NCBI GenBank assembly: GCA_963704645.1
Contig: OY969926.1
Span: forward strand, 512,001 to 576,000
From: an uncultured bacterium
GTDB lineage: Bacteria > Patescibacteriota > JACMRA01
DNA: 64,000 bases
Reading direction: 5' to 3'
This document shows, piece after piece, positions 2,348 to 21,332 of the stretch (within the stretch, counting starts at the first letter, position 1; each line of letters opens with the position of its first letter). The notes under the pieces were generated by a model, which was not told where the DNA came from, ran no database searches, and saw nothing but the letters and a program-made list of their open reading frames with translations. Made by a program: the position numbers and the translations under genes.

Positions 2348-2445
2348 ATTTTGCCTAAAAATATAATTCTTAGGGTTTTATGTAAACCAAAAAATACTAA
2401 GTGTGTTTTATTTTTATGGCTTAGACCCTGAAACAAGTTCAGGGT

Positions 2446-3525
2446 TGTATATGTCATAAATTTCAGTGACAGAATTTAAATCTTCTTTTAGATTATTTCT
2501 GTTAAATTTTTAACAACATATATTCTAACATAATATGCGTTTAAACGATAATACTTTAACCAAGAATTACCTTAGACATATGAAACAATTAGTTCAAGAA
2601 TATGAATTAATTAAAACAAGGAAACATCCTAGATATGTATTTGTAAATGAATTCTACAAAGCAAATAATATAACTAGACAAAACTTCATCAAATATTACA
2701 ATAGGTATAAATTAGTTTCTATGGATAGTAGTTTAATTCCAAAGAAAAGAGGGAGAAAGTTTGGTAGTTTAAAAAGTATTCCTTTCATACAGAATAAGAT
2801 TATTGAACTTAGAAACCAAGGATTTGGTAGATATGAGATACACGATTTCCTTTTACCTAAGTATGGTAAATATACTCCTTCACCTACGACTATTTACAAT
2901 ATACTATTAAAGAAAGGATTGAATAGATTAGATCCAAGAGTAATTCAAACTAACAAAAGAAGAATCATTAAAGATAAAGCAGGAGAATTAGGCCATATGG
3001 ATTGCCACAGACTAGCTAAAGGAATACTGGAGGGTGAAAAGAATGAATACTTTCTACTAAGCTTAACAGATGACTTTACTAGAATAGTTATGACCATACT
3101 AATACCTAATCTGCAAGCTCTAACAGTTATGCTTTATACTCAAAGATTATTAGCAGTATTCAATAGATGTTACAACATAGATTTTCAAAGTATATTAACA
3201 GACAATGGACCCGAATTTGGAAGGAAAGAAACAAAAGAAGAAAACAAACAAAACCATCCATTTGAAAGATTACTGTTAGAATACAACATTAAGCATAAGT
3301 ACACTAGAGCCTACAGGCCACAAACCAATGGTAAAGTAGAAAGATTCTGGAGAAGTTTAGAGGAAGAATTACTTAGAGAGCAAGTATACCCAGATAAAGA
3401 AAGTTTAGAAGAAGAATTATTTGAATATTGTTGCTACTTCAACCATATTAGAAGACATCAAGGTATTGGTAATATTACTCCCTATGAGAAACTTAATTCT
3501 GTCACTGAATAAGTTGACATATACA
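2446..3525 (+). mobile_element. IS481-family insertion sequence, copy 1 (1080 bp)
   Basis: TGT...ACA ends; imperfect IRs TGTATATGTCATAAATTTCAGTGACAGAATT / AATTCTGTCACTGAATAAGTTGACATATACA; AGGGT direct repeats at 2441-2445 and 3526-3530. Confidence 0.93.
2535..3512 (+). CDS. IS481-family DDE transposase (integrase core)
   Basis: GHMD, TDNGPEF and PQTNGKVERF motifs; YFNHIRRHQGIG C-terminus. Confidence 0.93.
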   Translation: MRLNDNTLTKNYLRHMKQLVQEYELIKTRKHPRYVFVNEFYKANNITRQNFIKYYNRYKLVSMDSSLIPKKRGRKFGSLKSIPFIQNKIIELRNQGFGRYEIHDFLLPKYGKYTPSPTTIYNILLKKGLNRLDPRVIQTNKRRIIKDKAGELGHMDCHRLAKGILEGEKNEYFLLSLTDDFTRIVMTILIPNLQALTVMLYTQRLLAVFNRCYNIDFQSILTDNGPEFGRKETKEENKQNHPFERLLLEYNIKHKYTRAYRPQTNGKVERFWRSLEEELLREQVYPDKESLEEELFEYCCYFNHIRRHQGIGNITPYEKLNSVTE

Positions 3526-3601
3526 AGGGTGACATGGCTCGCTCGCAGATCTCAAACTTGTCTATTTACAAAGTGTAATTGGTGGGCTAAACTAAGCTAG
3601 A

Positions 3602-5575
3602 TTGGCTACAGATTTAAACAGTTTAAAAAGTAAGATAAGGGTTAAACATAGTGAGAAATTAACTTTGGGTGACCAGTTTAAAAAGGCTTTGAAATATAGG
3701 TTTTTTTTGTATGTAAACTTTATTTTAATTACAGCCGTTTTGTTTTTAAGCTTGGGTGTACGTTTGAATCAAACAGTTGTAAAAGCTAAAGATTTAAGCC
3801 CAGGCTGGTTTGAAGTTGCCAGAACATTTCTAGATTTAAACGAAAAAGATAGGCAAAATAGTGTTTTACAAATTAAGCAAGAAGCGCGAGATGCTTTAAA
3901 ACCCATTGGTAATTTTACGCTTACAAATGGTTTAATAGAAGCTCAAATTGATGAATTAGATGGTCTTTTCCAGGAATGGTTAACAACATTAAAGCCTTTG
4001 TTGGTATATAGATTTAGCCCAAACGGTTTAATTTCAAGTAAAAATAGTGAAGATTATTTCACTAACGATTTGGAAAAAATACTAAATAATTTGCCTCCGC
4101 TTTTATTAAAAACTGAACAAAAATGGGATTCGGTTAGTTTAGTGCGCTGGGCTTTAAAAAACTTTGGAACGGCAAGAATTAAATTTGCTTTGCAATTAGT
4201 TGATGATAGTTTTGCTTGGATTAAGAAAATTTATCCTAATCGTGATCAGATTCTACAAATTTTAGGCAATGACACCAGGCAGAGAATTTTAATTTTCAAC
4301 CAAAACATTGGGGAAGCAAGGCCAACCGGTGGTTTTATTGGTTCTTATATTCCAATTGAATTGTTTAAGGGTAGGCTGACCATTGGCGAAAGTCAGAGTA
4401 TTTACAATGTAGACGGCTCTAAGCCCAAACCGCTGCTTACACATCCTGCTAATTGGTATTACGCTTTAGACTATAATGGCTATGGTGAAAGTGGTATTAG
4501 AAACATTAATTATTTTCAGTGTTTTCCTTCAACTGCATCGGCTTTACAGCGTGAATTTGCAACTAGTTCGCAGGGTTTTTCAGCTGATATTATCGTATTT
4601 TTAAACCCGCAATTGCTGCAATCTTTGTGGCCAGACAATTTAACAATTCAAACCCAGACAGTGGGGGAAATAAATAGATTTAACTTTTTGGAGCAGGTGG
4701 AAAAACTTACTAGCCCTTCTCTTTTGGCTAAAGATGATAAAAATCCAAAGGCTGAAATAAGTGTTGTGGCCGAAGCTTTAATTAACAATTTTAGCAAAGT
4801 TTTAGATCAGCAAAGCAGCTCTGAACTGGCCACAATAATGGGAGTGAATTTGCTTGCTAGAAACTTACAAATTTGGTTCAAAAATAGTTTAATTCAAGGT
4901 TATTGGGAAGAAACTGGCTTGGCTTCCACACAAACTTGTGAAGGGAAAAGTTCTATTCCAACAGTATCTTTTTTGTTAGCTAATTTATCTAGTGATAAGC
5001 GTAATTTAATAAGTAAAAATCAGTTTAGTTTTTATTCTGAAAGTGTTCTTGGTGGTCATAATATTCACTTTACATACCAGCAAATTATTCCAGACTCTCC
5101 AGACTTGTTGCGCGGTTTTAATTCCGATACGCCATTAACTTTTGTAGGACTTCAAATTCCTAAAGATGCTACTAAATTAAATGTATCTGGAAATAATGTT
5201 TTGAAGTTGCCAGCCTTAAGGCAAAACTTTATGGCCTTAGCTAGCAGTCAAATTGGTAGTTCGCCAAAGTTGCTTGAAGAAGCTAAAATTGTTGAAGAAA
5301 GTATGTCAGATTTGGAAACTGGTTTTGTATATTTTCAACCAGATGGAAGTCAAGTTATAGGGGCTTATATTAGAGATACGCAAGCTAGCAAAACTAAGTT
5401 TTCGTTCTTTATTCCAAATCGTTCAGGCGCTATTAAATTTTATTCTCAGCCTGGCATGGTTAATACCAGTTTGTCTTTAGGGGAAGGTGTAGAATTTAAA
5501 GATTTTCCAAGCCAGAAGTATTTAACTAAGCAAGATAGTATTGCCATTGGAACCAGTTTAATTTTGACAAATTAA
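3602..5575 (+). CDS. DUF4012-like membrane-anchored protein
   Basis: N-terminal TM; QNIGEARPTGGFIGSY motif typical of DUF4012. Confidence 0.75.
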   Translation: MATDLNSLKSKIRVKHSEKLTLGDQFKKALKYRFFLYVNFILITAVLFLSLGVRLNQTVVKAKDLSPGWFEVARTFLDLNEKDRQNSVLQIKQEARDALKPIGNFTLTNGLIEAQIDELDGLFQEWLTTLKPLLVYRFSPNGLISSKNSEDYFTNDLEKILNNLPPLLLKTEQKWDSVSLVRWALKNFGTARIKFALQLVDDSFAWIKKIYPNRDQILQILGNDTRQRILIFNQNIGEARPTGGFIGSYIPIELFKGRLTIGESQSIYNVDGSKPKPLLTHPANWYYALDYNGYGESGIRNINYFQCFPSTASALQREFATSSQGFSADIIVFLNPQLLQSLWPDNLTIQTQTVGEINRFNFLEQVEKLTSPSLLAKDDKNPKAEISVVAEALINNFSKVLDQQSSSELATIMGVNLLARNLQIWFKNSLIQGYWEETGLASTQTCEGKSSIPTVSFLLANLSSDKRNLISKNQFSFYSESVLGGHNIHFTYQQIIPDSPDLLRGFNSDTPLTFVGLQIPKDATKLNVSGNNVLKLPALRQNFMALASSQIGSSPKLLEEAKIVEESMSDLETGFVYFQPDGSQVIGAYIRDTQASKTKFSFFIPNRSGAIKFYSQPGMVNTSLSLGEGVEFKDFPSQKYLTKQDSIAIGTSLILTN

Positions 5576-5598
5576 TTAGCCTGAAACAAGGTAAATAA

Positions 5599-6795
5599 GT
5601 GTTAAATATTGTAGTTTTAAGTTCTAATAAGAAAGGTAAGTGCGGAATTAAAGATTATACCGAGCGTGTTTTTGATGAAGAATATTATGCTGAAAATTCT
5701 GTTGAAATTTTACCAATTGGTTTAATAAATTGTTTAAAAATTCCATTTAATAAAGCAGATATTGTGCATTTGCAGCACGAGTTCTTTTTGTTTGATAAAT
5801 TAATTGGAATAACAGGATTATTATTTGTTTTTTACTTCGGAATTGTTTCTTTTTTTACTAAGAAAAAACTTATTACTACGGTTCATTCTATTCATAACCC
5901 AAACAATTTAGAATTGGCTTTGCCACATTTTGCAAAGTTCAAAATTTTGTTTCCACTATTATCATTTTATTTAAAAGTTTACTATAGGACTATTATTTTG
6001 TTTAGCCAAAAAACTGTTGTTTTAAGTAAATCTTCAGCCGATGTACTGTATTCACTCACCTCAAAGCCTACTCAAAATAAAAACAAAATTGTAGTTTTGC
6101 CCCACGGTGTTTTCCCAAGGCTGCTAGAAAATACCAATACCAACTTGCTACAAGAAAAATTTTCTGTTCCAGTTAATTCACAAATTTGGACATTGTTTGG
6201 ATTCGCTTTTGAAAACAAAGGTTATCATTTAGCCATACAAGCTTTATCTAAAATTTTAGAACAAAATTCGGCCTCAAACATCCACTTAGTAATTGTAAGT
6301 GGGGAAGGACAGGTGATGTCTGCAGATGGAAATTCTGGTGAATCTTATTTAAGTTATTTAAAAAGAATTACTAAAGAAAGTAATTTGGAAGATAGAGTTC
6401 ATTTTACAGGCTTTTTGGGATATGATGAACCAAATCAAAAAGCTTTGTTGGCAGAAATATTCACTAAAACTTTTGCATTTCTATTTCCTTATTTTAACAG
6501 AAGTAACGCTTCGGGGGCTATGGCCAGTATTTTAAGTTATCAAAAACCAGTACTAGTTTCAGATATTCAATATTTTCAGGAGTTTCCATTTTTGCCTACT
6601 TTTAAGGAGGGTAATGTTGAAGATTTAATTGAAAAAATGCTTAGTTTTTCTAGCTCAAATTACGCCGAAGAATTAGTAGAAAAAGTATCCAAATACGTTG
6701 CTGAAAATAATTTGCAACAAGTTTTTGTTCAGCATATAAATTTGTATAAGGAAGTTTTGTCACCAGAGCACTGGAACGGTGTCTTTAGTAATTAA
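5599..6795 (+). CDS. GT4 (GT-B) glycosyltransferase
   Basis: CGIKDYT, HLQHEF, FGFAFENKG, SGAMASILSYQKPVLVSD. Confidence 0.85.
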   Translation: MLNIVVLSSNKKGKCGIKDYTERVFDEEYYAENSVEILPIGLINCLKIPFNKADIVHLQHEFFLFDKLIGITGLLFVFYFGIVSFFTKKKLITTVHSIHNPNNLELALPHFAKFKILFPLLSFYLKVYYRTIILFSQKTVVLSKSSADVLYSLTSKPTQNKNKIVVLPHGVFPRLLENTNTNLLQEKFSVPVNSQIWTLFGFAFENKGYHLAIQALSKILEQNSASNIHLVIVSGEGQVMSADGNSGESYLSYLKRITKESNLEDRVHFTGFLGYDEPNQKALLAEIFTKTFAFLFPYFNRSNASGAMASILSYQKPVLVSDIQYFQEFPFLPTFKEGNVEDLIEKMLSFSSSNYAEELVEKVSKYVAENNLQQVFVQHINLYKEVLSPEHWNGVFSN

Positions 6796-6810
6796 TTAAA
6801 TAATTGAAAT

Positions 6811-7968
6811 ATGAATGAACTTAAAATTGCTTGTCATTTACCAAACAGAGAAAGGTGCGGAATTGCAACTTATGCTAAAAATTTATACGCTCAGGCCGAT
6901 AAATTAAACTCCATCATAAATAATGATGAGACTGCTAAGACTGAAATTAAACTCCAACCTTTTGATACAAAGTTGGCAGATTTGTTTAAGCTTCTTTTCA
7001 AAAAAGTTGATGTTATTCATTTTCAACATGAGTTTGGAATTTGGCCTTTGTTTGGCCTTAGTTTTTTAATATATTTATCATTTTTAAGTGCTATAAATCT
7101 CATTCAAAACAGAAAAATTGTTGTTACAATGCATACAGTTTGGGAGATAAATAAATTAGATAAAATTTTTGCTCATTACCCAAAATATTTACAATTTATT
7201 ATTAGCATTTATTTAAAAACAAGTTACTTTTTAATAACCAATTTAAGCCACAAAGTTTTAGTTTTAAATGAAAATTCGGTGGAAGTATTAAACCAATTTT
7301 CATCAAATAAAAAGAAGGTTGAATATTTGCCACATGGTTTATTTTTGCCAGAAAAAAATGAGGTTGGCTTTGAAGTTCTAAGTAAAAATTATAATTTAAA
7401 ATTAGAAGAAAAATTAATTGTAATGTTTGGCTTTGCTTACCCCAATAAAGGTTTTCATTTAGCTATAGAAGCACTTCCTGAAATTTTAAAAAAAGTGCCA
7501 GAGGCAAAAATTATTCTGGCTTGTTCAGCGCCTAGCGATGGAGGACAAAATTATATGGAAACTTTAGAAAATTTAGCAATAAAATTAAACATTCAAGATA
7601 AGGTAATTTTTACAGGTTTTTTGGAAGATAATGACCCCAAACTTCAGGCTATTTTTAAGTACGCAACTTGCTTTGTTTACCCATATTTTAACCGAAGTGG
7701 GGCTTCTGGTTCTGTTGCTACAGTGTTTGGATATGAAAAACCAATTTTAGTTAGCAATATTCAGTTTTTTGAAAACTTTAGTTTTTTGCCTAAATTTAAG
7801 GAAGGCGATGTACAAGACTTGACATTACAGATAGTTCAGCTACTGTTAGAAAATAGAGACAGCAAAGGATACGAAAATTATTTAAATAGTATAAAACAAT
7901 ATTTAGATAAGCACAGTATTCGCCAAAGTTTCCAATTACAAATTAAAACTTTCTTAAATCTTTTTTAA
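6811..7968 (+). CDS. GT4 glycosyltransferase, paralog of the upstream gene
   Basis: CGIATYA, HFQHEF, FGFAYPNKG, PYFNRSGASG. Confidence 0.85.
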   Translation: MNELKIACHLPNRERCGIATYAKNLYAQADKLNSIINNDETAKTEIKLQPFDTKLADLFKLLFKKVDVIHFQHEFGIWPLFGLSFLIYLSFLSAINLIQNRKIVVTMHTVWEINKLDKIFAHYPKYLQFIISIYLKTSYFLITNLSHKVLVLNENSVEVLNQFSSNKKKVEYLPHGLFLPEKNEVGFEVLSKNYNLKLEEKLIVMFGFAYPNKGFHLAIEALPEILKKVPEAKIILACSAPSDGGQNYMETLENLAIKLNIQDKVIFTGFLEDNDPKLQAIFKYATCFVYPYFNRSGASGSVATVFGYEKPILVSNIQFFENFSFLPKFKEGDVQDLTLQIVQLLLENRDSKGYENYLNSIKQYLDKHSIRQSFQLQIKTFLNLF

Positions 7969-7991
7969 AACTCCAAATATTACAAAACAAT

Positions 7992-8741
7992 ATGATCCAA
8001 CTTCGTGAAAAAATTGAACTTTCTCCATCTTTAATAGACTATAAGTTTAAAAATCCAACTTTAAATAATTTAACTTCTAGTTTCCCTTTTTATTATTTTA
8101 GAAGGTTTTTGTACTACTCAGGATTACAATCTTCCATTCAAAAAGAGTTAATTTATAACGAAAGAATTGCAGAATATCCTTATGTATTTAAGCAATTAGG
8201 AGCTTTTGGTGATAAAATTAAAACAGTAATGGATATTGGAAGTAACGATTCTATTTTGCCTTTGCAATTGGCTACTGTTGGTTATGAAGTTACAGCTTTG
8301 GATCAAATTAACACCGAAAATATTTATCATCCAAACATGAAATTTATTTGCCAAGATTTGTTTGATAACTCTTTTGAAGATAACACTTTTGATGCGATTG
8401 TTTCTGTTTCTGTTATTGAACACATGGGATTTGGTTTTTACGGAGACAAAGTAATGGAAGATGCAGATAAAAAGGCATTTGAAGAGGTTTACAGAATGTT
8501 AAAGCCAGGTGGAGTTGCTGTTATTACTATTCCATTATTTGAACACGGAAATTACTGGGACGATAAAATTACTAAATTTACAGAAGAAAGAATTGATTTA
8601 ATTTGTAAGCCGTTTAAAGTTTTAGATAAGCAACTTTCTTCTAAGCAAACAAAGCAGCATGGCAGCAAAACTTTCGAGTTCTTTGCTCCTGCTAAAAAAC
8701 CTACAGAATGGAATGTTTGGTTGTTAACTTTGCAAAAGTAA
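7992..8741 (+). CDS. Class I SAM-dependent methyltransferase
   Basis: VMDIGS, FDAIVSVSVIEH, RMLKPGG. Confidence 0.85.
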   Translation: MIQLREKIELSPSLIDYKFKNPTLNNLTSSFPFYYFRRFLYYSGLQSSIQKELIYNERIAEYPYVFKQLGAFGDKIKTVMDIGSNDSILPLQLATVGYEVTALDQINTENIYHPNMKFICQDLFDNSFEDNTFDAIVSVSVIEHMGFGFYGDKVMEDADKKAFEEVYRMLKPGGVAVITIPLFEHGNYWDDKITKFTEERIDLICKPFKVLDKQLSSKQTKQHGSKTFEFFAPAKKPTEWNVWLLTLQK

Positions 8742-8819
8742 TCTTTTAGTAGTCACCAAATTATTGTTTTAATTACTTTATTGAGATCACTCCAATCTTC
8801 CAACACCAATGTTAAATTT

Positions 8820-9416
8820 ATGAATAATCAAGAAATTTTAGAGGCAGCTTGGGGCTTCAAGCCTTGCATTAAAAAGCAATGGTTTTATAAAGAAAATGCT
8901 GTAAAAAAAGTTTTAGATTATGGTTGTGGTTTTGGTGTTTACGGGCAAAATTTAGCTAGTCACGGCTTTGATGTTTATTTTGCCGATGTTGATGATAAAT
9001 TTTTAGATGCAATTCCAACTTCCAAGGAAAAAAAGTTTAAAATTGAATTTGATGCTTTGCCTTTTGAAGATAACCAATTTGATACAATTATTTTAGGTGA
9101 TGTAATAGAGCATGTGCAAGATCTAGATAAATTTTGGGCTGAAGTACAACGTGTAACTTCTTCTAAAATTCTTGTTTCTGTTCCCCGCAGAGAAACACCT
9201 TTCTGGTTTAAACCTCTAAATATTACATGGAAAGCCTACGAAGACATTACCCATAAACGTTATTTTGAGGAAAAAGAATTGCAAAGTTTAGCCAATTCAA
9301 ATTGGTCAGTTTCTATTCAGAAATATTATCCAAGAGCTAAACTAAATTGGCTGTTTAATTTTTTGGAAAAAATTGGGTACTATCCTGGGTATTTGGCGGT
9401 TTTTAGTAGGGTTTAG
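8820..9416 (+). CDS. Class I SAM-dependent methyltransferase
   Basis: VLDYGCGFG, LPFEDNQFD, DVIEHV; ATG at 8820 preferred over TTG at 8781. Confidence 0.85.
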   Translation: MNNQEILEAAWGFKPCIKKQWFYKENAVKKVLDYGCGFGVYGQNLASHGFDVYFADVDDKFLDAIPTSKEKKFKIEFDALPFEDNQFDTIILGDVIEHVQDLDKFWAEVQRVTSSKILVSVPRRETPFWFKPLNITWKAYEDITHKRYFEEKELQSLANSNWSVSIQKYYPRAKLNWLFNFLEKIGYYPGYLAVFSRV

Positions 9417-9484
9417 TTGATAGTTCGAAATAATTTGTTGATGGCAATAAGTTAATTTTATTTAATCAGACTCACTTAAATTTT

Positions 9485-10021
9485 ATGTCACTTAAATTTC
9501 GAAAAGCTAGTTCTGAACAATTACCTATTGTTAAAGAAATGATTAAAAAGTATTGGACTGAGATTGAAGAAAAATATCCCGATCCTTCTACTTTGGAATT
9601 ATGCTTAGAAAATATTGATCACACTTTAGCATTTTATTATAAATTTTTTCAAGATGATTATGTTCTAAGTGAAGTGGATAATTTTTATTTTATTTATTTG
9701 GGCCAGGAAATTATCGGCTGTATTTCTTTAGAAAAGATTGAGGATATTTCGGAATTATATATTTGTGATTTGATGATTAAATCAGAATCTCAAGGTTTAG
9801 GATATGGTAAAATGACGCTGGACTTTGCTTTTGAAATGGCTAAAAAAAGTAGTTTAAAGCAAGTAGGTCTTTGGGTAGATAAAAAGAATATAGCTGCAAA
9901 AAACCTGTATCAAAAATCTGGCTTTGTTCTCGTTAAACCAGAGAAGCTAGACTGGATAAATGCTCAAGGTAAAGTGGTACTACAAACCGATAGTGAATAT
10001 TTAGTTAAAAAACTTACCTAA
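9485..10021 (+). CDS. GNAT acetyltransferase
   Basis: QGLGYG acetyl-CoA motif; N..A..LYQKSGF. Confidence 0.85.
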   Translation: MSLKFRKASSEQLPIVKEMIKKYWTEIEEKYPDPSTLELCLENIDHTLAFYYKFFQDDYVLSEVDNFYFIYLGQEIIGCISLEKIEDISELYICDLMIKSESQGLGYGKMTLDFAFEMAKKSSLKQVGLWVDKKNIAAKNLYQKSGFVLVKPEKLDWINAQGKVVLQTDSEYLVKKLT

Positions 10022-10114
10022 CTATTCACATTAGTTGTATTGTTAACTTAGCTAATTATATTTAGAAGCTAATATTCCATTCCTAGCCAATCAACAAGTT
10101 TATCCTAGATTAAA

Positions 10115-12676: not shown

Positions 12677-13008
12677 AATTGAATTTATAGTACAATAAGC
12701 CACTGGTCATGTCAATTTGAAAATTCAATACCAGATATCAACAATTATTTTAACTTGTTAGTTATTATGACAACCAGGAATAGGGGGTGGCCACTCCAAC
12801 ACGCACATATTACTTTGGGAAATAATAATTGCGATCATAATAAGTTTTCTAAACTATTATCCATAATTAAAACTAGCCTTTCATTAATTTGGAAGGTTTT
12901 TCATTTGTATCAGATAAGCGACTATAAAGTCATCTTTAGAACATCAAACTACTTCATCAAATAGATACTTTTGGGCTGGTGCGTGTTGCTATGGTATAAT
13001 TACAATTT

Positions 13009-13692
13009 TTAACCCAACAAAACACTAGCGGGCTGAACAACTTGACCGTCAATTTTATAACCCAAACCTGCAATTTTAGAAACTTTTGGATTTTCTTCAG
13101 AATCTGGGGCTACGTCTAAGGCTGACATAGTTTCAGGATTGAAATCATCTTGGGGTTTTGGTGAAATAATTTCTATGCCAGCTAAGTTTAAATCGTTAAT
13201 TACTTTTCCGAAGCTATTTTCTAAAGTAGCAATAAAACTTTTAATTTTAATATCATCAGATTGAGGGGCGAAAGAAAAAGCCAAGTTTAAAGTGTTTAAA
13301 AATACAATTAAATGTGAAGCCACAGTTTTCTTTCCAGATTTTTTTGCTCCTGCTAAATCAAGCTCTTGCTGCTTTTGCAAATTAGCAATTTCAGCCGAAA
13401 GCCTGGCTGTTCTTTGCTGCCAATCTTTTACTTCGGCTTTTAAGCTCTGAATTTTTACTTCTGTTTCAATTTCCTGAAAATTGCTAGAATCATTTTCTCC
13501 ATTACTGGAATTGCTACTTTCACTAGAAGTGTCCTGAGTACTAATTTCTTCATTTTGATTTAAATTTTCTTGAGAAATGGAACTAATATTTTCATTTGAA
13601 TCTTCATTCTGATCTAAATTAGAATTCAAGTTACTTTTTCCAGCTTTTCCACTGCGTTTCTTTAAAGAATCTAGTTTATCACTTTGGGACAT
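13009..13692 (-). CDS. grpE: Nucleotide exchange factor GrpE
   Basis: Coiled coil R..AE..N; FNPETMSA; GYKIDGQVVQPASV. Confidence 0.88.
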   Translation of the reverse strand: MSQSDKLDSLKKRSGKAGKSNLNSNLDQNEDSNENISSISQENLNQNEEISTQDTSSESSNSSNGENDSSNFQEIETEVKIQSLKAEVKDWQQRTARLSAEIANLQKQQELDLAGAKKSGKKTVASHLIVFLNTLNLAFSFAPQSDDIKIKSFIATLENSFGKVINDLNLAGIEIISPKPQDDFNPETMSALDVAPDSEENPKVSKIAGLGYKIDGQVVQPASVLLG

Positions 13693-13779
13693 ACATTAAT
13701 TTTATAAGAATATTCCTTTTTGGTGTCAATTTTAAAATGTTTTTAGTTTTTGTTTTAATACTTTTAAAAAGTAAATTGT

Positions 13780-13854
13780 TGGAGCGGGATAGGGGAATCG
13801 AACCCCTCTCATCAGCTTGGAAAGCTGAGGTAATAACCACTATACAAATCCCGC
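13780..13854 (-). tRNA. tRNA-Gly(TCC)
   Basis: Acceptor GCGGGAT/ATCCCGC-T-CCA, anticodon loop TT-TCC-AA, T-loop TTCGATT. Confidence 0.96.
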
Positions 13855-13970
13855 CCAGGTGTACCACTTCATTACTAGTCACTCGTGAACTTTATCCTGT
13901 GGTTAGGCCAATGATAAGATTTCGCGTGGTTAGACTAGCCAATCTGGAAGAAAGCTAGATGCGGTCCTGG
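13855..13970. ncRNA. Candidate structured ncRNA of unknown class
   Basis: GC-richer 116-nt segment closed by CCAGG/CCTGG with nested stems CTAGTC/GACTAG, CGTGAA/TTCGCG, TTTATC/GATAAG. Confidence 0.45.
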
Positions 13971-14078
13971 AGCCGATTTATGAAATTTAATTTTAATTAT
14001 TACTAATTAATTTAGCAATCATAAGGTAGCTACATTTCATACATATTCTGTAAGCTTATAGAAAAACTGGTTGTTTTA

Positions 14079-14164
14079 TGGTCCGGAGTCAAAGATTTGA
14101 ACTTTGGTAGGGAAAACCCGACAGATTTACAGTCTGCTGCCATTGACCGCTCGGCCAACTCCGG
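14079..14164 (-). tRNA. tRNA-Tyr(GTA) with C1-G72 pair
   Basis: CCGGAGT...ACTCCGG-A-CCA; anticodon arm GCAGA-CTGTAAA-TCTGT; short variable stem GGG-TTTT-CCC. Confidence 0.95.
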
Positions 14165-14286
14165 TTAGAACCAGCTAATCCATAAGATCATATAATGCTA
14201 AAAATTTTAATTGTTTGTCAAGGGTAAGGTAAGTGCTTTAAATTTTCCAAAATACAATTTGTTAGTTATAATGAAGTAAAAATAAG

Positions 14287-14991
14287 ATGTCTCTGCAAAT
14301 TTTACAAGTTAAACCTCCAACAGCCGAAGCGCTAAGAATTGCTGCAGAAAAAAAGTCGCAAACCTCGCAAAACGAAAATACCCAAGCAGAGCGTGTTAAG
14401 GAGATCAAGGAAGTTCTAAGTTCATATATCAGACTTTCTGAATATTTAGATGGAGTGTTTGATTCAAAAATGCCAACCACTAATGAAGACAAATATTCAT
14501 TTCTAAAAAACATTTTATCCTCAAGTATGTTTTTTGATTCAAAATTTAAAAAATATCAGCTTAATCACAAAGGACTTATTTTAGATGCTTTTGAAAACAA
14601 TAGTATCTTTTCTAAAGAGGAAATTAAGGAAGTTTTTGTTCTACTTGATGAAATGATTATATCTCAAAAGGAGCTCGGCTATACAGCCGAATTAAAAAGA
14701 AAGTTGCTAGACATGCCTAATCCTACACTAAGTTTTACGCAGCATATACTTTTAGGAATTTTATTTGTTGGATCTATAGACGCAGGAACTAGAAATGAAC
14801 ACCAATTCAATGATAGAACAGCATTAATTGAATCGAACGGTAGAAATTTTAGATTTGGAAGCCAACATATCACTGGACACAACCAGCCTGGTGAAAACGG
14901 TGTAAAGCAACCACACACACATCTAGAATTTTATGTGGATAGAGGTAATGAGAAGAAAGAATCTTTTTCCTTGCACGTTTTAATAAAATAG
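14287..14991 (+). CDS. Hypothetical protein with His-rich C-terminal domain
   Basis: 234-aa ORF; C-terminal HITGH...PHTH. Confidence 0.55.
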   Translation: MSLQILQVKPPTAEALRIAAEKKSQTSQNENTQAERVKEIKEVLSSYIRLSEYLDGVFDSKMPTTNEDKYSFLKNILSSSMFFDSKFKKYQLNHKGLILDAFENNSIFSKEEIKEVFVLLDEMIISQKELGYTAELKRKLLDMPNPTLSFTQHILLGILFVGSIDAGTRNEHQFNDRTALIESNGRNFRFGSQHITGHNQPGENGVKQPHTHLEFYVDRGNEKKESFSLHVLIK

Positions 14992-15027
14992 GTATTGGTA
15001 TTAAAGGAACTAAAATAAAGTGTTAAT

Positions 15028-15279
15028 ATGACAGAACAACAGAATAATTTGATGAGGTTAATTACAGTCAACTTAGATCTTGATATTAAGGTAATTAAGC
15101 TCGATTCAAATATTAGTAAGATATTTGTTAAGTCGGGACTAGAAGAGCAAGTTTTGGTTGTTTATTATAAAAATGCTGATATTAAGGAAATGTTTTGCAG
15201 CAATATTTTATCAGTCTGTAATGATATAATTGATGTCTTAAATTTAAGTGCATCAGATTTAAAAGTTGAACTTGAATAA
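15028..15279 (+). CDS. Small hypothetical protein
   Basis: 83-aa ATG ORF directly after 14287..14991. Confidence 0.5.
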   Translation: MTEQQNNLMRLITVNLDLDIKVIKLDSNISKIFVKSGLEEQVLVVYYKNADIKEMFCSNILSVCNDIIDVLNLSASDLKVELE

Positions 15280-15302
15280 ACATTTTCGCAAAAACTAAAA
15301 AT

Positions 15303-15330
15303 GCCCATTTCCAGGTTAGGATTGGGCATT
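15303..15330 (-). terminator. Repeated terminator-like hairpin, copy 1
   Basis: GCCCA...TGGGC stem with A/T tracts; 27/28 identical to 15802..15829. Confidence 0.6.
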
Positions 15331-15346
15331 ATTTTTTTTGGTCAGT

Positions 15347-15742
15347 TTATTGTAAAAGAACAATTTTAAACCTTACTTTTTCAATATATTCTGTTGTGGT
15401 AAACTGTAGAATATAAGTTTCATCTTGTGAAATTACACAAAGCGGATAATCCACTATAATAGTAAACTCAATATCATCCCAGGCACTTATATTTGTTAGC
15501 TCTAAATAATATACAAAGGTGTTTGAAATGTTATCTTTTCTAAAATAAATTTTTACTCCAAAGTGTGTTATAATTTCGTCTTCCAGTTCAATTTCGTAAA
15601 CTTGGCTTACACAACTTGCACTGCTTAATTGATCCAACTTTAACTCATAATTTATTAAACCACTTAAAACAACAAAACTGTAAATAAAACATTCAGCAAC
15701 GTTTAGCAAACCTAAGTCGCCCATTTTGTAAACCTGTAACAA
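15347..15742 (-). CDS. Orphan hypothetical protein
   Basis: 131-aa ORF followed by the repeated hairpin; start uncertain. Confidence 0.45.
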   Translation of the reverse strand: MLQVYKMGDLGLLNVAECFIYSFVVLSGLINYELKLDQLSSASCVSQVYEIELEDEIITHFGVKIYFRKDNISNTFVYYLELTNISAWDDIEFTIIVDYPLCVISQDETYILQFTTTEYIEKVRFKIVLLQ

Positions 15743-15801
15743 CTAATTTTGAAATAAAATGTTTTAAATTATTTGGTCAAAATATTTTTGAAATTAAAAA
15801 A

Positions 15802-15829
15802 GCCCAGTTCCAGGTTAGGATTGGGCATT
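15802..15829 (-). terminator. Repeated terminator-like hairpin, copy 2
   Basis: Near-identical to 15303..15330. Confidence 0.6.
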
Positions 15830-15846
15830 TATTTATTTATTTATTT

Positions 15847-16140
15847 TTAAATATTTTCCACTGATAATAATGCTATTGCTATATATTCTTTGGAGTATCC
15901 ATTGAATTTCTCTTGCACAATAGTATAACCTAATATTTTAAATGTGATATTGTAAGTTCCAAAAATTTTACCAAATCTATACCCTATAAGAGCATCGCAA
16001 AAGAAAACAGTTTGGTTTTTTGGAAGATTAAGCACATGTTCTGTAAATAAGGAAGGCTCGAAGCTGCCGTAATAGCTATGAGTTTCCGATGTGTATGCCA
16101 GCAAGGCCTTGGCACTATATACTTTATCTGTATCAAACAT
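15847..16140 (-). CDS. Orphan hypothetical protein
   Basis: 97-aa ATG ORF followed by the repeated hairpin. Confidence 0.5.
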   Translation of the reverse strand: MFDTDKVYSAKALLAYTSETHSYYGSFEPSLFTEHVLNLPKNQTVFFCDALIGYRFGKIFGTYNITFKILGYTIVQEKFNGYSKEYIAIALLSVENI

Positions 16141-16270
16141 TAATTTATTCTACTGATGAAGACTATTTACTATTAGCACACTTTTAAACTTATTTCAAGT
16201 ACAGTTACCAAGTCATCCAGCAGCCTTGACATTTCTTCCCTTCACATCAAGCATTATTAAACAATATACT

Positions 16271-16909
16271 ATGTCTAACCCAAATTTAAACCACCCAGTT
16301 ATTAAAGGTATTCGCTACCAAAGAACTTTTTGTATGATTAAACCAGATGGTGTAGCCAGAGGTTTAGTTGGAGAAATTATTAGAAGAATTGAAAATGCTG
16401 GATTGAAAGTTGTAGCCATGAAAATGCAAACACCTTCTGAAGAATTGGTAAAGAAGCATGTTCCTTTTGAAAACGCAGCTTGGGTTTCAAGATTAGGTGA
16501 CAAAAGTTTTAGCGGTTTTGAACCATTAAACCTAAACCCAGTAGAATTTTTGGGAACAGATGATAAGGCAGTAATTGGTAAAAATGTAGCCGATAACTTG
16601 GTTAAGTTCCTTTGTTCCGGCCCTGTAGTAGCTATGGTTGTTGAAGGTGTTCAAGCTATAGATATGATTAGAAAGTTAGCAGGACACACACTTCCTTTCA
16701 AAGCCGAAATGGGAACAATTAGAGGAGACTTTTCAGTAGATTCTCCTTCCATTGCCAACGTAGAAGGTAGAGCAATTCATAACTTATTCCACGCCAGTGA
16801 AACATTAGAAGAAGCAACAAACGAAATTGGCCTATGGTTCCCAGAAGCATCTGACCAACAAAGCTATTCCAGAACTGACGAAGACACAATGTACAGCAAG
16901 AATTATTAA
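16271..16909 (+). CDS. ndk: Nucleoside diphosphate kinase
   Basis: RTFCMIKPDGV, SGPVVAMV, GTIRGDF, NLFHAS; the track's TTG at 16226 is the -35 box. Confidence 0.95.
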   Translation: MSNPNLNHPVIKGIRYQRTFCMIKPDGVARGLVGEIIRRIENAGLKVVAMKMQTPSEELVKKHVPFENAAWVSRLGDKSFSGFEPLNLNPVEFLGTDDKAVIGKNVADNLVKFLCSGPVVAMVVEGVQAIDMIRKLAGHTLPFKAEMGTIRGDFSVDSPSIANVEGRAIHNLFHASETLEEATNEIGLWFPEASDQQSYSRTDEDTMYSKNY

Positions 16910-16913
16910 GAAT

Positions 16914-16936
16914 GTAGGGGAAGAATTTATCCTCCC
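16914..16936 (+). repeat. Degenerate GTAG-type REP
   Basis: GTAGGGGAAG...CCTCCC just after the ndk stop. Confidence 0.4.
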
Positions 16937-17031
16937 AGCTTAATAAAACATAGAAGGGGGGGTTATCCCTCCTTTTTTGTTGCATAATTTATTCCTCAAA
17001 TTAAATTGTTTGTATTATTTATAACATGTGA

Positions 17032-17055
17032 TGGCGACACAGTGGTGGTCGCTAC
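17032..17055 (-). repeat. GTAG-type REP
   Basis: Reverse complement GTAGCGACCACCACTGTGTCGCCA. Confidence 0.55.
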
Positions 17056-17100
17056 GGATTACCAATTGACATTATCTTACTTAAATAATAATCTTACTAT

Positions 17101-17358
17101 ATGTCATATACTACTACTGTTTCCAGTAAGGGGCAAGTTGTTATTCCTGAAGAAATAAGGAAGATATTGTCTATTAAACCCGGTTTAAAATTTAATTTAA
17201 CTATTCAAGATGGTAAAATTGTTATGGAGATAGATGATTATGAATTAAAAATGAAAAATTTTAGAGATAAAATAAAGAAACACATGGAAGATAATAATAT
17301 TGGCCCTGTGTCTAATGCGGATATAAAAAAAGCTAGAGAAGATACATGGTCAACGTAA
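17101..17358 (+). CDS. AbrB/MazE/SpoVT-family antitoxin (VapB-like)
   Basis: TVSSKGQVVIPEEIRKILSIKPG. Confidence 0.9.
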   Translation: MSYTTTVSSKGQVVIPEEIRKILSIKPGLKFNLTIQDGKIVMEIDDYELKMKNFRDKIKKHMEDNNIGPVSNADIKKAREDTWST

Positions 17359-17765
17359 TTGAAGGCTTACCGTTTTGTAGCATAGATACAAATGTATTGT
17401 TAAGATTTATTATTGGAGATGTTCCGAAGCATTTTGAACTAGTTAACAAAATATTAGAAAACCCCAATTTAAGAAAAATTTATATAAATGATCTTGCTAT
17501 TGTAGAAATGGTTTGGGTGATGGAGAAAGTTTATAAAATTGATCGTTACACTATTGTTACTGGTGTGGAGAATATACTCTCATATCCAAAATTTATAGTA
17601 AATAGAATTCTTTTTAAGGATATTGCTCCACTGTACTTATGTAACTCAAAGTTATCGTTTGCCGATTGTTACTTGGCTATAAGTGCTGAAAACCATACTA
17701 CAAGTTTACTTACTTTTGATAAAGATTTAGCTAAAAATGTTGAATCTGCTGTGCTTGTTGGGTAG
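17346..17765 (+). CDS. PIN-domain toxin (VapC-like)
   Basis: IDTNVLLR, E..WV, SFADC, LLTFDKDL; overlaps the antitoxin stop. Confidence 0.9.
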   Translation: MVNVIEGLPFCSIDTNVLLRFIIGDVPKHFELVNKILENPNLRKIYINDLAIVEMVWVMEKVYKIDRYTIVTGVENILSYPKFIVNRILFKDIAPLYLCNSKLSFADCYLAISAENHTTSLLTFDKDLAKNVESAVLVG

Positions 17766-18276
17766 GGGGAAGGAAGTGTTAAAACCCTTGACAAAAGCCT
17801 ATTTTTGGGGAATAAAGGGTGTATAGTTGCGTGTTAAATTATTGTTTTTAGGAGTTATGATTATGATATTTGCGTATCTAACGTTGATTTTTACGATTTT
17901 TGTATTAATGGAGTCGCTATTATATAGCCATTGGGTTAAGATTACGACTGGTACAAATCGAATTTTAAAATTTAATTTGCAGTCTATATTTTATGAAGCT
18001 ACTTTTATTTTTAAAAGATATTCAGAACTAAACTTTGGTTTTATAAGACTTTTTCAAGTTCGCAAACATTACCATTATTATTGTAATCGCCCAAGGCCAA
18101 TTAATACGTCTGCTGATTGTCTATTGTACATGCCTCAGATTAACTTTGATTTGGCAGAAAGGTGTTGATAAAAACTACATGATTTCAAAATGCCCCCAAG
18201 GTTGTCCAAGGGTGGTATTTTTTGTCTTAAAATTGTTTTTCGAATCAAGGCATTTGTTTTATTTACAAAGTGCAAT

Positions 18277-18298
18277 GGCGAGATGGGCTCGCCGCTAC
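18277..18298 (-). repeat. GTAG-type REP
   Basis: Reverse complement GTAGC-GGCGAG-CCCAT-CTCGCC. Confidence 0.65.
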
Positions 18299-18335
18299 TG
18301 TTGCCAAAATGCATCTCGCTAATTACAACTAAATT

Positions 18336-19349
18336 ATGAACTCGGAACTTCTTCCTAAGGCTGTTAAAAATATTCAAGATATCCTAAATTTATCTATAGA
18401 GTTTGATTCAACAAAAAACCAAGCTTTAGTAATTTATGACAATCAAGATGAATTAACTAAATTACTAACAAGTGCCTATAGGCAGGTTTTACCAGAGGCA
18501 AAGTTTGTGAATTTTGATGATGTTTCAAAAGAAGAAATTATTGCAGAATTTGATAATCTTTCGCCTAAAGATTTGGTTGTTTTGGTTCAATCAGCCAGTT
18601 TTAGGCTTGATGATTTTAGAATTAGAATATATTTATTCCAACAGAAATTAAAAACTATAGAGCATGTTCATCTTTATCGTAATAATAAAGACGTATGGGA
18701 TGTTTACATCAACTCTCTTGCTTATGATCAAAATTATTACAGAAGCCATGGCCTAGGTTTGCAAAAAAAATTATCAAAGAGCTCAGTTTTAAAAATAAAG
18801 TCTGGCGAAACTGAACTGGTTGTTAGCGGAAATTTAGAAATGCCGAAACTAAACATTGGCGATTATTCTGAAATGGATAATGTGGGTGGAACTTTTCCTA
18901 TTGGTGAAGTTTTTACAGAAGCTGTAGATTTAGAAAATATGAATGGCAGTTTTATGGTTTACGCTTTTGCAAATCAGAAGTTTGAAATTATTACACCAGA
19001 AAAATTTAGAGTAGATATTACTAAAGGTTTAGTAACTGGCTGGTCTGATAATGCTCCGAAAGAATTTCTATCTGTTCTTGAGGCTATAAAAGAATTAGAA
19101 AGACCTGTAATTAGAGAAATTGGTTTTGGTTTGAACAGGGCAATTTCTAAAACCAGAATTATTGGAGATATAACCGCTTTTGAAAGAATTGTTGGTGTCC
19201 ATTTATCTTTGGGTGAAAAGCATACAGTATACAAAAAACAAGGAATACAAGCCCATAAAGCTAGATTTCATGTAGATTTCTTTTTACAGGTAGAAAAAGT
19301 TGAGGTTGACGATGAAATAATTTTTGATGGAGAAAAGTATTTTGTTTAG
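18336..19349 (+). CDS. M29-like (thermophilic metallo-aminopeptidase fold) protein
   Basis: FPIGEVFT, REIGFGLN, ERIVGVHLSLG, HVDF. Confidence 0.7.
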   Translation: MNSELLPKAVKNIQDILNLSIEFDSTKNQALVIYDNQDELTKLLTSAYRQVLPEAKFVNFDDVSKEEIIAEFDNLSPKDLVVLVQSASFRLDDFRIRIYLFQQKLKTIEHVHLYRNNKDVWDVYINSLAYDQNYYRSHGLGLQKKLSKSSVLKIKSGETELVVSGNLEMPKLNIGDYSEMDNVGGTFPIGEVFTEAVDLENMNGSFMVYAFANQKFEIITPEKFRVDITKGLVTGWSDNAPKEFLSVLEAIKELERPVIREIGFGLNRAISKTRIIGDITAFERIVGVHLSLGEKHTVYKKQGIQAHKARFHVDFFLQVEKVEVDDEIIFDGEKYFV

Positions 19350-19556
19350 AAAATTCCAGCTAATCGTAGCTCATGATAGTTTTGTAAAAGAGTATGCTTA
19401 TTGTGCAATTGTCAGTAAACATTCACTCCTAAAATTAATCTAGTAAGAAGTCTAAGAGGCTAGTTTATAGAAAAGCTTCTAACACTACGGATAAAGTACA
19501 TTTTACTGTTTGGGCTATATCGGCTTAAATTAGTAAAAGCTTTAATAACAAATCTA

Positions 19557-20063
19557 TTAGCTAAACAAATTAACAACTTTGGCGTTTTCTATTCCACCAA
19601 TTCCTGTGTCAGAGGTTGGCATTACTAATAATTTACGGTTCTGTGGTTCTCCAACGCTGGTAGTTTGCAAACCTTTAATTTCTGCTAAAATACCGTGAAC
19701 TAACTTTCTTTCGTAGCCACTTAACCCTGTTAAAATAATTGTTGTTCCTTGCTTTAATACTATTTCTTCAGCTAAAACAGGTACGCGTTCGCCAATTAGT
19801 TTTTCTCTAGATTTTTTGGCACCGGCAACATCAAGCAAGAAATGTTCTTTTTCTTCTGGAAAAGTGTGGTGAACAATTACTCTTGCAATATGTTGTAAGC
19901 TGAAGATGAAGTTTGGATCGGTTGGAATTGGGTTTGTTTTGGAATTAATAGTAATTCTATACTGCTGACTTTCTTTTTCAACTAAATATTCTGGGTCAAT
20001 ACCCATAGGTTGCAATAGACTGCCAATAACTTCCAATAAAAAACTTTGGTAGTCTGGATTCAT
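19557..20063 (-). CDS. Jag/KhpB-like KH-R3H RNA-binding protein
   Basis: LSGYERKLVH (R3H), TTSVGEPQNR, SLQHI. Confidence 0.8.
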   Translation of the reverse strand: MNPDYQSFLLEVIGSLLQPMGIDPEYLVEKESQQYRITINSKTNPIPTDPNFIFSLQHIARVIVHHTFPEEKEHFLLDVAGAKKSREKLIGERVPVLAEEIVLKQGTTIILTGLSGYERKLVHGILAEIKGLQTTSVGEPQNRKLLVMPTSDTGIGGIENAKVVNLFS

Positions 20064-20227
20064 ACTGAAGTATAGGAATAGTTACTATGCTATTTGTCAA
20101 GGAAATATAGATAAATAGAGTTATTAAAGTTAAAAACATCTTCACGGCATGTTCCACGAAAAATGTAACAAAAAATTCTTCGTTTTACCGTTATTCAATG
20201 ACCTATACCCTGAAACAAGTTCAGGGT

Positions 20228-21307
20228 TGTATATGTCAACTTATTCAGTGACAGAATTAAGTTTCTCATAGGGAGTAATATTACCAATACCTTGATGTCT
20301 TCTAATATGGTTGAAGTAGCAACAATATTCAAATAATTCTTCTTCTAAACTTTCTTTATCTGGGTATACTTGCTCTCTAAGTAATTCTTCCTCTAAACTT
20401 CTCCAGAATCTTTCTACTTTACCATTGGTTTGTGGCCTGTAGGCTCTAGTGTACTTATGCTTAATGTTGTATTCTAACAGTAATCTTTCAAATGGATGGT
20501 TTTGTTTGTTTTCTTCTTTTGTTTCTTTCCTTCCAAATTCGGGTCCATTGTCTGTTAATATACTTTGAAAATCTATGTTGTAACATCTATTGAATACTGC
20601 TAATAATCTTTGAGTATAAAGCATAACTGTTAGAGCTTGCAGATTAGGTATTAGTATGGTCATAACTATTCTAGTAAAGTCATCTGTTAAGCTTAGTAGA
20701 AAGTATTCATTCTTTTCACCCTCCAGTATTCCTTTAGCTAGTCTGTGGCAATCCATATGGCCTAATTCTCCTGCTTTATCTTTAATGATTCTTCTTTTGT
20801 TAGTTTGAATTACTCTTGGATCTAATCTATTCAATCCTTTCTTTAATAGTATATTGTAAATAGTCGTAGGTGAAGGAGTATATTTACCATACTTAGGTAA
20901 AAGGAAATCGTGTATCTCATATCTACCAAATCCTTGGTTTCTAAGTTCAATAATCTTATTCTGTATGAAAGGAATACTTTTTAAACTACCAAACTTTCTC
21001 CCTCTTTTCTTTGGAATTAAACTACTATCCATAGAAACTAATTTATACCTATTGTAATATTTGATGAAGTTTTGTCTAGTTATATTATTTGCTTTGTAGA
21101 ATTCATTTACAAATACATATCTAGGATGTTTCCTTGTTTTAATTAATTCATATTCTTGAACTAATTGTTTCATATGTCTAAGGTAATTCTTGGTTAAAGT
21201 ATTATCATTTAAACGCATATTATGTTAGAATATATGTTGTTAAAAATTTAACAGAAATAATCTAAAAGAAGATTTAAATTCTGTCACTGAAATTTATGAC
21301 ATATACA
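20228..21307 (-). mobile_element. IS481-family insertion sequence, copy 2 (1080 bp)
   Basis: Same IRs as copy 1; AGGGT direct repeats at 20223-20227 and 21308-21312. Confidence 0.93.
20241..21218 (-). CDS. IS481-family transposase
   Basis: Protein identical to 2535..3512; one synonymous AAC/AAT difference seen at codon 4. Confidence 0.93.
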   Translation of the reverse strand: MRLNDNTLTKNYLRHMKQLVQEYELIKTRKHPRYVFVNEFYKANNITRQNFIKYYNRYKLVSMDSSLIPKKRGRKFGSLKSIPFIQNKIIELRNQGFGRYEIHDFLLPKYGKYTPSPTTIYNILLKKGLNRLDPRVIQTNKRRIIKDKAGELGHMDCHRLAKGILEGEKNEYFLLSLTDDFTRIVMTILIPNLQALTVMLYTQRLLAVFNRCYNIDFQSILTDNGPEFGRKETKEENKQNHPFERLLLEYNIKHKYTRAYRPQTNGKVERFWRSLEEELLREQVYPDKESLEEELFEYCCYFNHIRRHQGIGNITPYEKLNSVTE

Positions 21308-21332
21308 AGGGTGACAGCTTGCTACAACATCA

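Follow-up and report, generated by a model that had tools for sequence, protein, structure and literature searches.

The DNA analysed here, called the window below, is a 64,000-bp stretch (positions 512001-576000) of the closed 1,272,640-bp genome of an uncultured bacterium of the Patescibacteriota (GCA_963704645.1, contig OY969926.1; G+C 33.4%; G000 below), and it carries two copies of a 1080-bp insertion sequence (IS). This is likely an active, distant IS481-type element that is sequence-specific for a dispersed extragenic repeat, which it uses as a safe harbour. Both window copies have the anatomy of a complete IS, all full copies in the genome share an identical insertion point, empty versions of that site exist beside the filled ones, relatives in other genomes behave in the same way, and the transposase gene is under purifying selection.

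The two window copies lie directly after ACCCTGAA-ACAAG-TTCAGGGT and directly before AGGGTGACA (3526-3534 for copy 1, 21308-21316 for copy 2), confirming the coordinates of a first-pass annotation that had been made from the sequence without database searches. They measure 1080 bp each and differ at one base, IS position 101. Copy 2 is inverted with respect to copy 1, yet it occupies the same place in the same orientation of the repeat. The termini read TGT...ACA and the terminal inverted repeats are imperfect, with 26 of 31 positions matching, while the interior holds a single open reading frame (ORF) of 325 aa, with no frameshift and with its stop codon inside the right inverted repeat (IRR).

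All full copies share one insertion point

Using blastn we found eight full IS copies, at least 99.35% identical, and five short end fragments in the 1.27-Mb genome. All eight full copies interrupt one particular phosphodiester of a repeat of ~30 bp, TTAG-ACCCTGAA-ACAAG-TTC[AGGGT]^GACAG (brackets, duplicated 5-mer; caret, insertion point), where the 5-bp AGGGT is duplicated, and the consensus junction over the eight copies is ...GAAAYAARTTC[AGGGT]-IS-[AGGGT]GACAG. The duplication is perfect in five of the eight. The copy at genome position 431237 occupies a degenerate site without the loop and the inner stem of the hairpin, and the one at 676197 a 'long form' of the repeat, described below. 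Four of the five end fragments also adjoin the same target, the exception being a decayed fragment at 642156.

The first-pass annotation had proposed, from the window pair, that the IS targets one base of a hairpin, and had predicted what the empty site should look like. When the remaining six copies were tested for unrelated sites they proved to lie in the same repeat and at the same base, and the predicted empty site is real, its exact 12-mer TTCAGGGTGACA occurring 13 times in the genome. The uninterrupted repeats match the site rebuilt from the IS flanks. Such a pattern, with all copies of an IS at one position of a repetitive extragenic palindrome (REP), has been called a 'type 1 association' and has been described for members of the IS3, IS110, IS4, IS256 and IS5 families (Tobes and Pareja 2006, PMC1525189, cited here and below for its available text); the same repeat position, in a repeat that can be rebuilt from the flanks, was found for 8/8 copies here, one of them in the degenerate site.

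With respect to the repeat, seven full copies have one orientation and a single copy, window copy 1, has the other, so that among the eight only here does the transposase gene run in the direction from hairpin to GACA; including the fragments the split is 10:2. The earlier claim that the IS inserts in either orientation is therefore true, and the relatives described below use both about equally, but in this genome the full copies divide 7:1.

A short core of the target is not enough by itself to explain the targeting: TCNNNNTGAC is present 215 times in the genome, and AGGNTGACA 38 times, of which 10 are beside an IS, 15 in empty repeats and 13 elsewhere, the last group without a single IS (0/13).

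Because ~85% of the genome is coding, most random insertions would be lost, and one could imagine an IS that inserts with no targeting at all and whose survivors are simply those in harmless repeats. Selection, however, cannot put 8/8 copies at one phosphodiester with the same duplicated 5-mer, and the repeats make up ~1.5 kb of the ~185 kb of non-ORF DNA. Moreover, the genome contains a second IS481-like element (1139 bp, four identical copies, a 353-aa ORF scoring 130 bits on the IS481 model), which survives in four unrelated sites with the 5-bp duplications TAAAA, TGTAG, ACCAC and ATGTT, none of them (0/4) in the hairpin repeat. The association is therefore a property of the 1080-bp element and not of the genome, and the probability that we attach to insertion without targeting is close to nil.

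Beyond the closed genome, contigs of a public sediment run (X1) contain the IS at an identity of at least 99%, with a junction resembling that of the genomic copy at 1132980, and contigs of three freshwater or lake runs contain short, diverged IS pieces only. Neither a bridge across an empty site nor a circle junction was seen in the run contigs, a type of data that is uninformative either way.

The target is a dispersed extragenic repeat

Repeat copies were counted by a Hamming scan with the 30-nt consensus TTAGACCCTGAAACAAGTTCAGGGTGACAG, allowing at most eight mismatches, which gave 50 copies in the genome and 0 in each of three shuffled genomes. Forty-two of these are uninterrupted, and the other eight are halves adjoining an IS or an IS fragment. 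The hairpin therefore does occur without the IS, and the proposal of the first-pass annotation that it belongs to the host holds up, both on these counts and on its presence in sister genomes without a transposase match. Nearly all copies (48/50) lie outside ORFs of at least 100 aa, which cover 85% of the genome. The conserved part of the repeat is only ~35 bp, with TTAG conserved on one side and GACAG on the other; the hairpin has an 8-bp stem and a 5-nt loop, and as single-stranded DNA (ssDNA) it folds with -7.7 kcal/mol (z -3.95, 0/200 shuffles as good).

Nine copies belong to the long form, in which a 45-48-bp insert between TTAGACCCT and GAAACAAG displaces the 5' arm by ~50 bp; the fold of this form is not significant (z 0.2). 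The insert carries a small palindrome of its own, and nearly the same 45 bp are found twice inside a very long ORF (768554 and 1248724; L026, L027).

Classic REPs have a conserved GTAG-type 5' tetranucleotide and form clusters of the bacterial interspersed mosaic element (BIME) type. The tetranucleotide and the BIME arrangement are also described in the available text of PMC3333891. With these the repeat shares its form, that of a short imperfect palindrome, its extragenic location and its presence in multiple copies, though at ~50 their number is low compared with classic REPs. It has no GTAG-type 5' tetranucleotide, and its copies are single, the nearest pairs being ~0.8-1.1 kb apart, with no BIME-like clusters. 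A search for a Y1 or REP-associated tyrosine transposase (RAYT) gene (PF01797) gave 0 matches in the closed genome, and the same search was positive in 6/14 control genomes. Without a RAYT, the repeat is therefore REP-like, as had been claimed, in shape and location but not part of a REP/RAYT system.

We also considered the repeat as a transcriptional terminator, and rejected this since there is no orientation or position bias relative to genes and no T run after the stem: empty copies lie on the same strand as the neighbouring gene in 24 cases and on the opposite strand in 19, and divergent, convergent and tandem spacers are all represented. Rfam searches at E<=1 with three long-form loci, two short-form loci and the two ORF loci with the 45-bp insert found only a neighbouring tRNA, and at the gathering threshold the window gave two tRNAs and nothing else.

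Of 26 genomes from the family of G000, 13 carry a 17-nt core of the repeat, at 1-112 matches each; they represent 8 of 18 genera, and the reversed control gave 0. Two of these genomes, G016 (87 core matches) and G022 (24), yielded no transposase in our search. The hairpin might nonetheless be owned not by the host but by the IS, as a footprint, a part of the element, or a MITE (miniature inverted-repeat transposable element) derived from it. In G016, which belongs to a sister genus, many contigs break at a MITE-like repeat of ~130 bp that has the uninterrupted hairpin in its middle (L142-L160), and in another related genome, G003, a MITE with the ends of the IS has internal hairpins. This origin is at odds with four observations: the repeat and the IS termini have no sequence in common, the IS may face either way with respect to the repeat, the empty copies have a single AGGGT, as in a naive target and not a footprint, and genomes in which no transposase was detected have the repeat in abundance. 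We regard it as extremely unlikely that the hairpin derives from the IS.

The arrangement in G016 does suggest that the 'host' repeat may itself be, or may once have been, a small mobile element. G001, a genome of the same genus, lacks both hairpin and IS at the place orthologous to window copy 2, which is compatible with a mobile repeat, the two loci being too diverged (64-84% identity) for a clean empty site. The repeat belongs to the host, or is an older non-autonomous element, and is located between genes.

A distant IS481-type transposase

Members of the IS481 family are ~1 kb long, with terminal inverted repeats and a short target duplication, and the element agrees with this in size and ends (1080 bp, 26/31 positions in the inverted repeats, 5-bp duplication). 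Its transposase matches Pfam rve, rve_2 and rve_3. The first-pass annotation had called it IS481, and this is indeed the best NCBIfam model (NF033577; E 1.1e-45, residues 38-319 on model positions 17-283 of 284), with IS3 as the runner-up at 60 bits, but the kinship is only distant, the score of 156 bits lying under the curated cut-off of 224. In a tblastn search of plasmids, the 15 best matches listed include 13 that carry the label 'IS481 family transposase'; identities are 25-28%, with 85-93% of the query covered. On these comparisons the element would belong to the IS481 family as a distant member.

Residues D156, D223 and E269 are invariant across 14 aligned relatives and probably constitute the catalytic triad of the DDE core. 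In an AlphaFold model built from the 14-sequence alignment (mean predicted local distance difference test score, pLDDT, 79.6), two N-terminal helical domains and a basic linker precede an RNase-H-like core, and the best full-length PDB match of this model is IstA of IS21, followed by retroviral integrases. The N-terminal 156 aa had no Pfam match even at E<=10, and a sequence search of the PDB gave nothing beyond one marginal integrase match.

The ORFs of the eight genomic copies vary at seven positions, and since every change is synonymous, leaving 8/8 proteins identical, the transposase is intact and has been under purifying selection during the slight divergence of the copies. In metagenomes the family is very large, with 6312/8000 scored candidates matching at E<=0.001. 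One protein, 52% identical, is labelled as coming from a Patescibacteria metagenome-assembled genome (MAG), and the genomes of the same phylum that were sampled outside the window's family and order all measure 0.7-1.2 Mb (15/15), so the element probably resides in an uncultured lineage with small genomes.

Relatives follow the same insertion rule in this and other repeats

A transposase search of the reference-genome contigs found no relatives; those described here came from a separate genome search. In G009, of a sister genus, the assembly breaks at a related IS that is 84-89% identical at the C-terminus, and its 19 IS-contig junctions comprise eight of the form N5-GAC (e.g. AGGATGACA), two of the form N4-GAC, five on the hairpin side (e.g. 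ACCCTGAACTTGTTTCAGGATC) and four that are unclear. Since both IS ends are found on both sides, both orientations are used in this genome. In G003, AGGATGACA stands at the right end of a full copy that is 67% identical. A 146-bp MITE carrying the IS ends uses the same spot there: its left ends come after ...TTCAGGRT in 6/6 cases, and its right ends lie before GGGATGACA or AGGGTGACA or are flipped. In G017 an IS remnant adjoins ATCCTGAA.

Two further details concern these genomes. The G003 MITE (L054-L060; full example L058) contains two internal hairpins, one of which has been hit again by another copy, giving a nested insertion. In G001 (L061, G001:C1:8000-8700) a decayed left IS end of ~31 nt lies after a hairpin, and next comes a 13-nt stretch that repeats the right half of this hairpin; the locus is an IS remnant with an unusual junction.

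Among 80 metagenome loci 45 were analysed (L062-L091 and L093-L107), the other 35 (L092 and L108-L141) being partial or 24-40% identical; the flank table omits L062, L073, L080 and L103 (inverted-repeat score <14) as well as L069 (no ends found). Thirty loci are 39-51% identical to the window element, and 26 of them have usable ends, with N5-GAC on one side in 18/26 and a perfect 5-bp duplication in 13/26. One locus lies in the same hairpin family as in G000. Most of these loci lie in another repeat, ...GGATTGCTTCG...CTC[GCAAT]^GACG, with the variants GCGAT and AGGAT, and with respect to the target the IS points one way in 11 cases and the other way in 7. What these relatives share is the insertion rule ...TC[N4T]^GAC inside host-specific repeats. 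Relatives at 33-37% identity (L093-L106) are found at the centre of AAATAGGGGAC-N-GTCCCCTATTT palindromes, with a clean 5-bp duplication in 4/15; the flanks of L093 and L106 are not direct repeats but exact inverted copies of each other.

In four metagenomic loci (L067, L083, L084 and L090) the hairpin-side half of the target is present on both flanks, inverted, and in L076 the GAC side is present on both. Flanks of this kind could result from inversion between two copies that point in opposite directions, or from an insertion that hit the axis of some longer palindrome. They are the outcome expected from inversion between opposite copies, which is the arrangement of the two copies in the window.

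Weighing the evidence

Since the IS is flanked by repeats on both sides (25 bp and 10 bp), it could in principle have spread from filled hairpins to empty ones by homologous recombination or gene conversion, with no transposition involved. The recombined-looking flanks of L067, L083, L084 and L090, with the hairpin side twice, are in line with this, as are the mismatched duplications of 3/8 genomic copies, which could mean exchange between copies. Recombination, however, would leave the IS in one orientation with respect to the repeat, and both exist; the homology is very short, above all the 10 bp on the GACA side; the transposase is intact and under purifying selection; and a MITE that has the IS ends alone behaves likewise. 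We consider spread by recombination very unlikely.

Several points do weigh against an active element with a sequence-specific target. At least one mismatch is present in three of the eight duplications (431237, 1097142 and 1132980), and these need a secondary explanation, namely point mutation or exchange between copies; imperfect direct repeats have elsewhere been attributed to recombination between IS copies (PMC1525189), an account that fits the three found here. The 7:1 split of orientations is unlike a fully symmetric mechanism, though it is not significant (two-sided binomial p ~0.07); for the 10:2 split that includes the fragments p is ~0.04, and since the copies are perhaps not independent we treat the orientation bias as unproven. 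Lethality of insertion may be the only reason why 13 AGGNTGACA sites have stayed without an IS. The repeat without IS in G016 and G022 is weakened as an argument, and is not proof, since MAGs can lose IS contigs. The assignment to IS481 falls under the NCBIfam cut-off, and the whole case is drawn from static genomes. Finally, in the four target types seen the duplicated 5-mer has its complement in a 5-mer further upstream (ACCCT/AGGGT, ATCCT/AGGAT, ATTGC/GCAAT and ATCGC/GCGAT), which leaves room for a role of pairing.

This last point bears on what is recognised, for which the first-pass annotation had named sequence and structure as alternatives. If the target were a structure, an extruded hairpin or cruciform, or an ssDNA hairpin at a replication fork, would be cut at the base of its 3' arm beside GAC whatever the sequence of the stem. 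The G000 repeat does fold well as ssDNA (-7.7 kcal/mol, 0/200 shuffles), the complementarity of the 5-mers is kept while their sequence varies (AGGGT, AGGAT, GCAAT, GCGAT), and the relatives at 33-37% identity lie at the centre of GGGGAC-N-GTCCCC palindromes. Yet one insertion (676197) is in the long form, with the 5' arm ~50 bp away and no significant fold (z 0.2), and another (431237) in a site without loop and inner stem; six targets of the GCAAT type have folds no more stable than those of shuffled sequence (z -0.9 to +1.7); occupied stems carry mismatches; and the complementarity may be a mere property of the host repeats. Structure-specific targeting is on balance unlikely. Given that ...TC[N4T]GAC is conserved everywhere and that some occupied sites have no significant hairpin, the reading of sequence in duplex DNA is favoured, and what is recognised is probably the sequence rather than an extruded hairpin.

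In the mechanism that we propose, the transposase would recognise, in duplex DNA, a single defined site formed by the repeat's 3' arm and base (...AAGTTC[AGGGT]^GACAG), and would cut the target strands 5 bp apart, leading to the duplication of AGGGT. Either orientation would be possible because the two IS ends are near-equivalent, and insertion between genes would leave the genes intact, the 'safe harbour' effect. The transposase itself would read the site, with the N-terminal helical domains as the probable reader, and movement may be replicative, of the copy-out/paste-in kind, by analogy with IS3-type elements. A site-specific safe harbour would explain how eight intact IS copies are present in a 1.27-Mb, 85%-coding genome without disrupting genes.

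One further idea, that the same transposase surface reads both its own ends and the target, failed a chance test. The interior of the IS end, TTCAGTGACAG, resembles the target, TTCAGGGTGACAG, at chance level, since 121/3000 shuffled targets and 514/3000 random genomic 44-mers score equally.

The window copies and their surroundings

Table 1. Features of the IS copies and their targets (window coordinates unless marked as genome).
Feature	Coordinates	Strand	Basis or remark
Host repeat copy 1, left part: TTAG + hairpin ACCCTGAA-ACAAG-TTCAGGGT	2421..2445	+	sequence, fold
Left target-site duplication of copy 1, AGGGT	2441-2445	+	
IS copy 1, 1080 bp	2446..3525	+	
Left inverted repeat (IRL) of IS copy 1	2446-2476	+	
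IRR of IS copy 1	3495-3525	+	
Transposase ORF of IS copy 1, 325 aa	2535..3512	+	
Copy 1, right side: AGGGT (3526-3530), then GACAT	3526..3535	+	GACAT is the rest of the repeat
Host repeat copy 2, left part: CTAT + hairpin	20203..20227	+	
Left duplication of copy 2	20223-20227	+	
IS copy 2, 1080 bp	20228..21307	-	
ORF of IS copy 2	20241-21218	-	
Copy 2, right side: AGGGT (21308-21312), then GACAG	21308..21317	+	
Long-form repeats	genome 32272, 90554, 348913, 351846, 359614, 389907, 667770, 676150, 971610		L023-L025
Second IS481-like element	G000:C1:464062-465200; other copies at genome 817337, 652069, 864542		L161

The right inverted repeat of copy 1 contains an outward-facing TTGACA, 6 nt from the end (window 3510-3525), which could serve as the -35 element of a hybrid or circle-junction promoter. 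The two window copies form inverted repeats 16.7 kb apart (2446-21307), with glycosyltransferase-like genes, a subtilisin-like protease and two tRNAs between them, and the pair could be a substrate for inversion of the intervening 16.7 kb. In G001 the DNA matching this segment is split over two contigs, with the break near window 19350-19532. Beside IS copy 1 lies a 556-aa ORF (window 677-2347, minus strand) that is weakly similar to defence-type AAA ATPases (PtuA, E 5.6e-17, far under the cut-off). Genome-wide, the stop codons of the 832 ORFs longer than 150 aa are TGA in 35, TAA in 477 and TAG in 320, and ORF coverage barely shifts when TGA is read through (85.5% vs 87.0%).

Comparison with known systems

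The IS481 family is not among the REP-targeting families in the available text of PMC1525189. In our literature search, with supplements and ISfinder/TnPedia outside its scope, we found no IS481-family element described as targeting REPs or other repeats, and searching the literature with the target strings returned unrelated primer matches only.

The closest parallels are found in the IS3 family, where ISPsy8, IS1397 and ISKpn1 likewise have an rve-type DDE transposase, occupy a fixed position within an extragenic palindromic repeat and generate a short direct repeat (PMC1525189), and where the choice of target has been attributed to the transposase. These elements differ from ours in several respects. 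In place of the two ORFs and the frameshift of IS3 elements, the element here has the single ORF of an IS481-like IS; ISPsy8 produces a 3-bp repeat and not 5 bp; and, compared with the REP-targeting IS3 elements, the host repeat here has no RAYT partner and only ~50 copies. ISRm22 of Sinorhizobium, an IS4-family element, also has all its copies in a REP, with some imperfect direct repeats (PMC1525189), but its transposase is of another family, its direct repeat is 6 bp, and it inserts on the axis of the palindrome instead of at the base of the 3' arm.

Members of the IS110 family (IS621, ISPpu9, ISPpu10 and ISPa11) resemble the element in that all copies are found at one REP position (PMC1525189 and the available text of PMC12288879). 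Their enzyme, however, is a DEDD recombinase, and they mostly lack terminal inverted repeats and give repeats of 0-2 bp, in contrast to the DDE transposase, 31-bp inverted repeats and 5-bp duplications seen here. Targeting in the IS110 family is now ascribed to a guide ('bridge') RNA. Within the IS481 family, the element shares the single ORF, the length of ~1 kb and the TGT...ACA ends with IS481 and IS1002 of Bordetella and with other IS481 members, from which it is set apart by an identity of 25-28% and by a score under the curated cut-off. IS481 itself prefers the short palindrome NCTAGN and duplicates 6 bp.

The targeting habit is common to relatives across several genera and metagenomes whose repeats differ, and apparently a whole metagenomic clade has strict repeat-site specificity, as judged from the flanks of its members. 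These relatives offer a natural series of transposase/target pairs from which to learn how a DDE transposase reads its target. More tentatively, and with well under an even chance of being right, one may picture a very large IS481-like clade of uncultured small-genome bacteria for which targeting of short repeats is obligate, in which the duplicated 5-mer ends in T, lies immediately 5' of GAC and forms the 3' base of a pairing-capable element, and whose N-terminal domains co-diverge with the host repeats. If true, clade-wide repeat targeting would explain how ISs persist in 1-Mb genomes; and if pairing of the 5-mers were the signal, it would be a case of structure-assisted target choice, which is not known to have been described for DDE insertion sequences. 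With the element described here, the IS481 group joins the families known to target extragenic repeats, which in PMC1525189 are IS3, IS110, IS4, IS256 and IS5.

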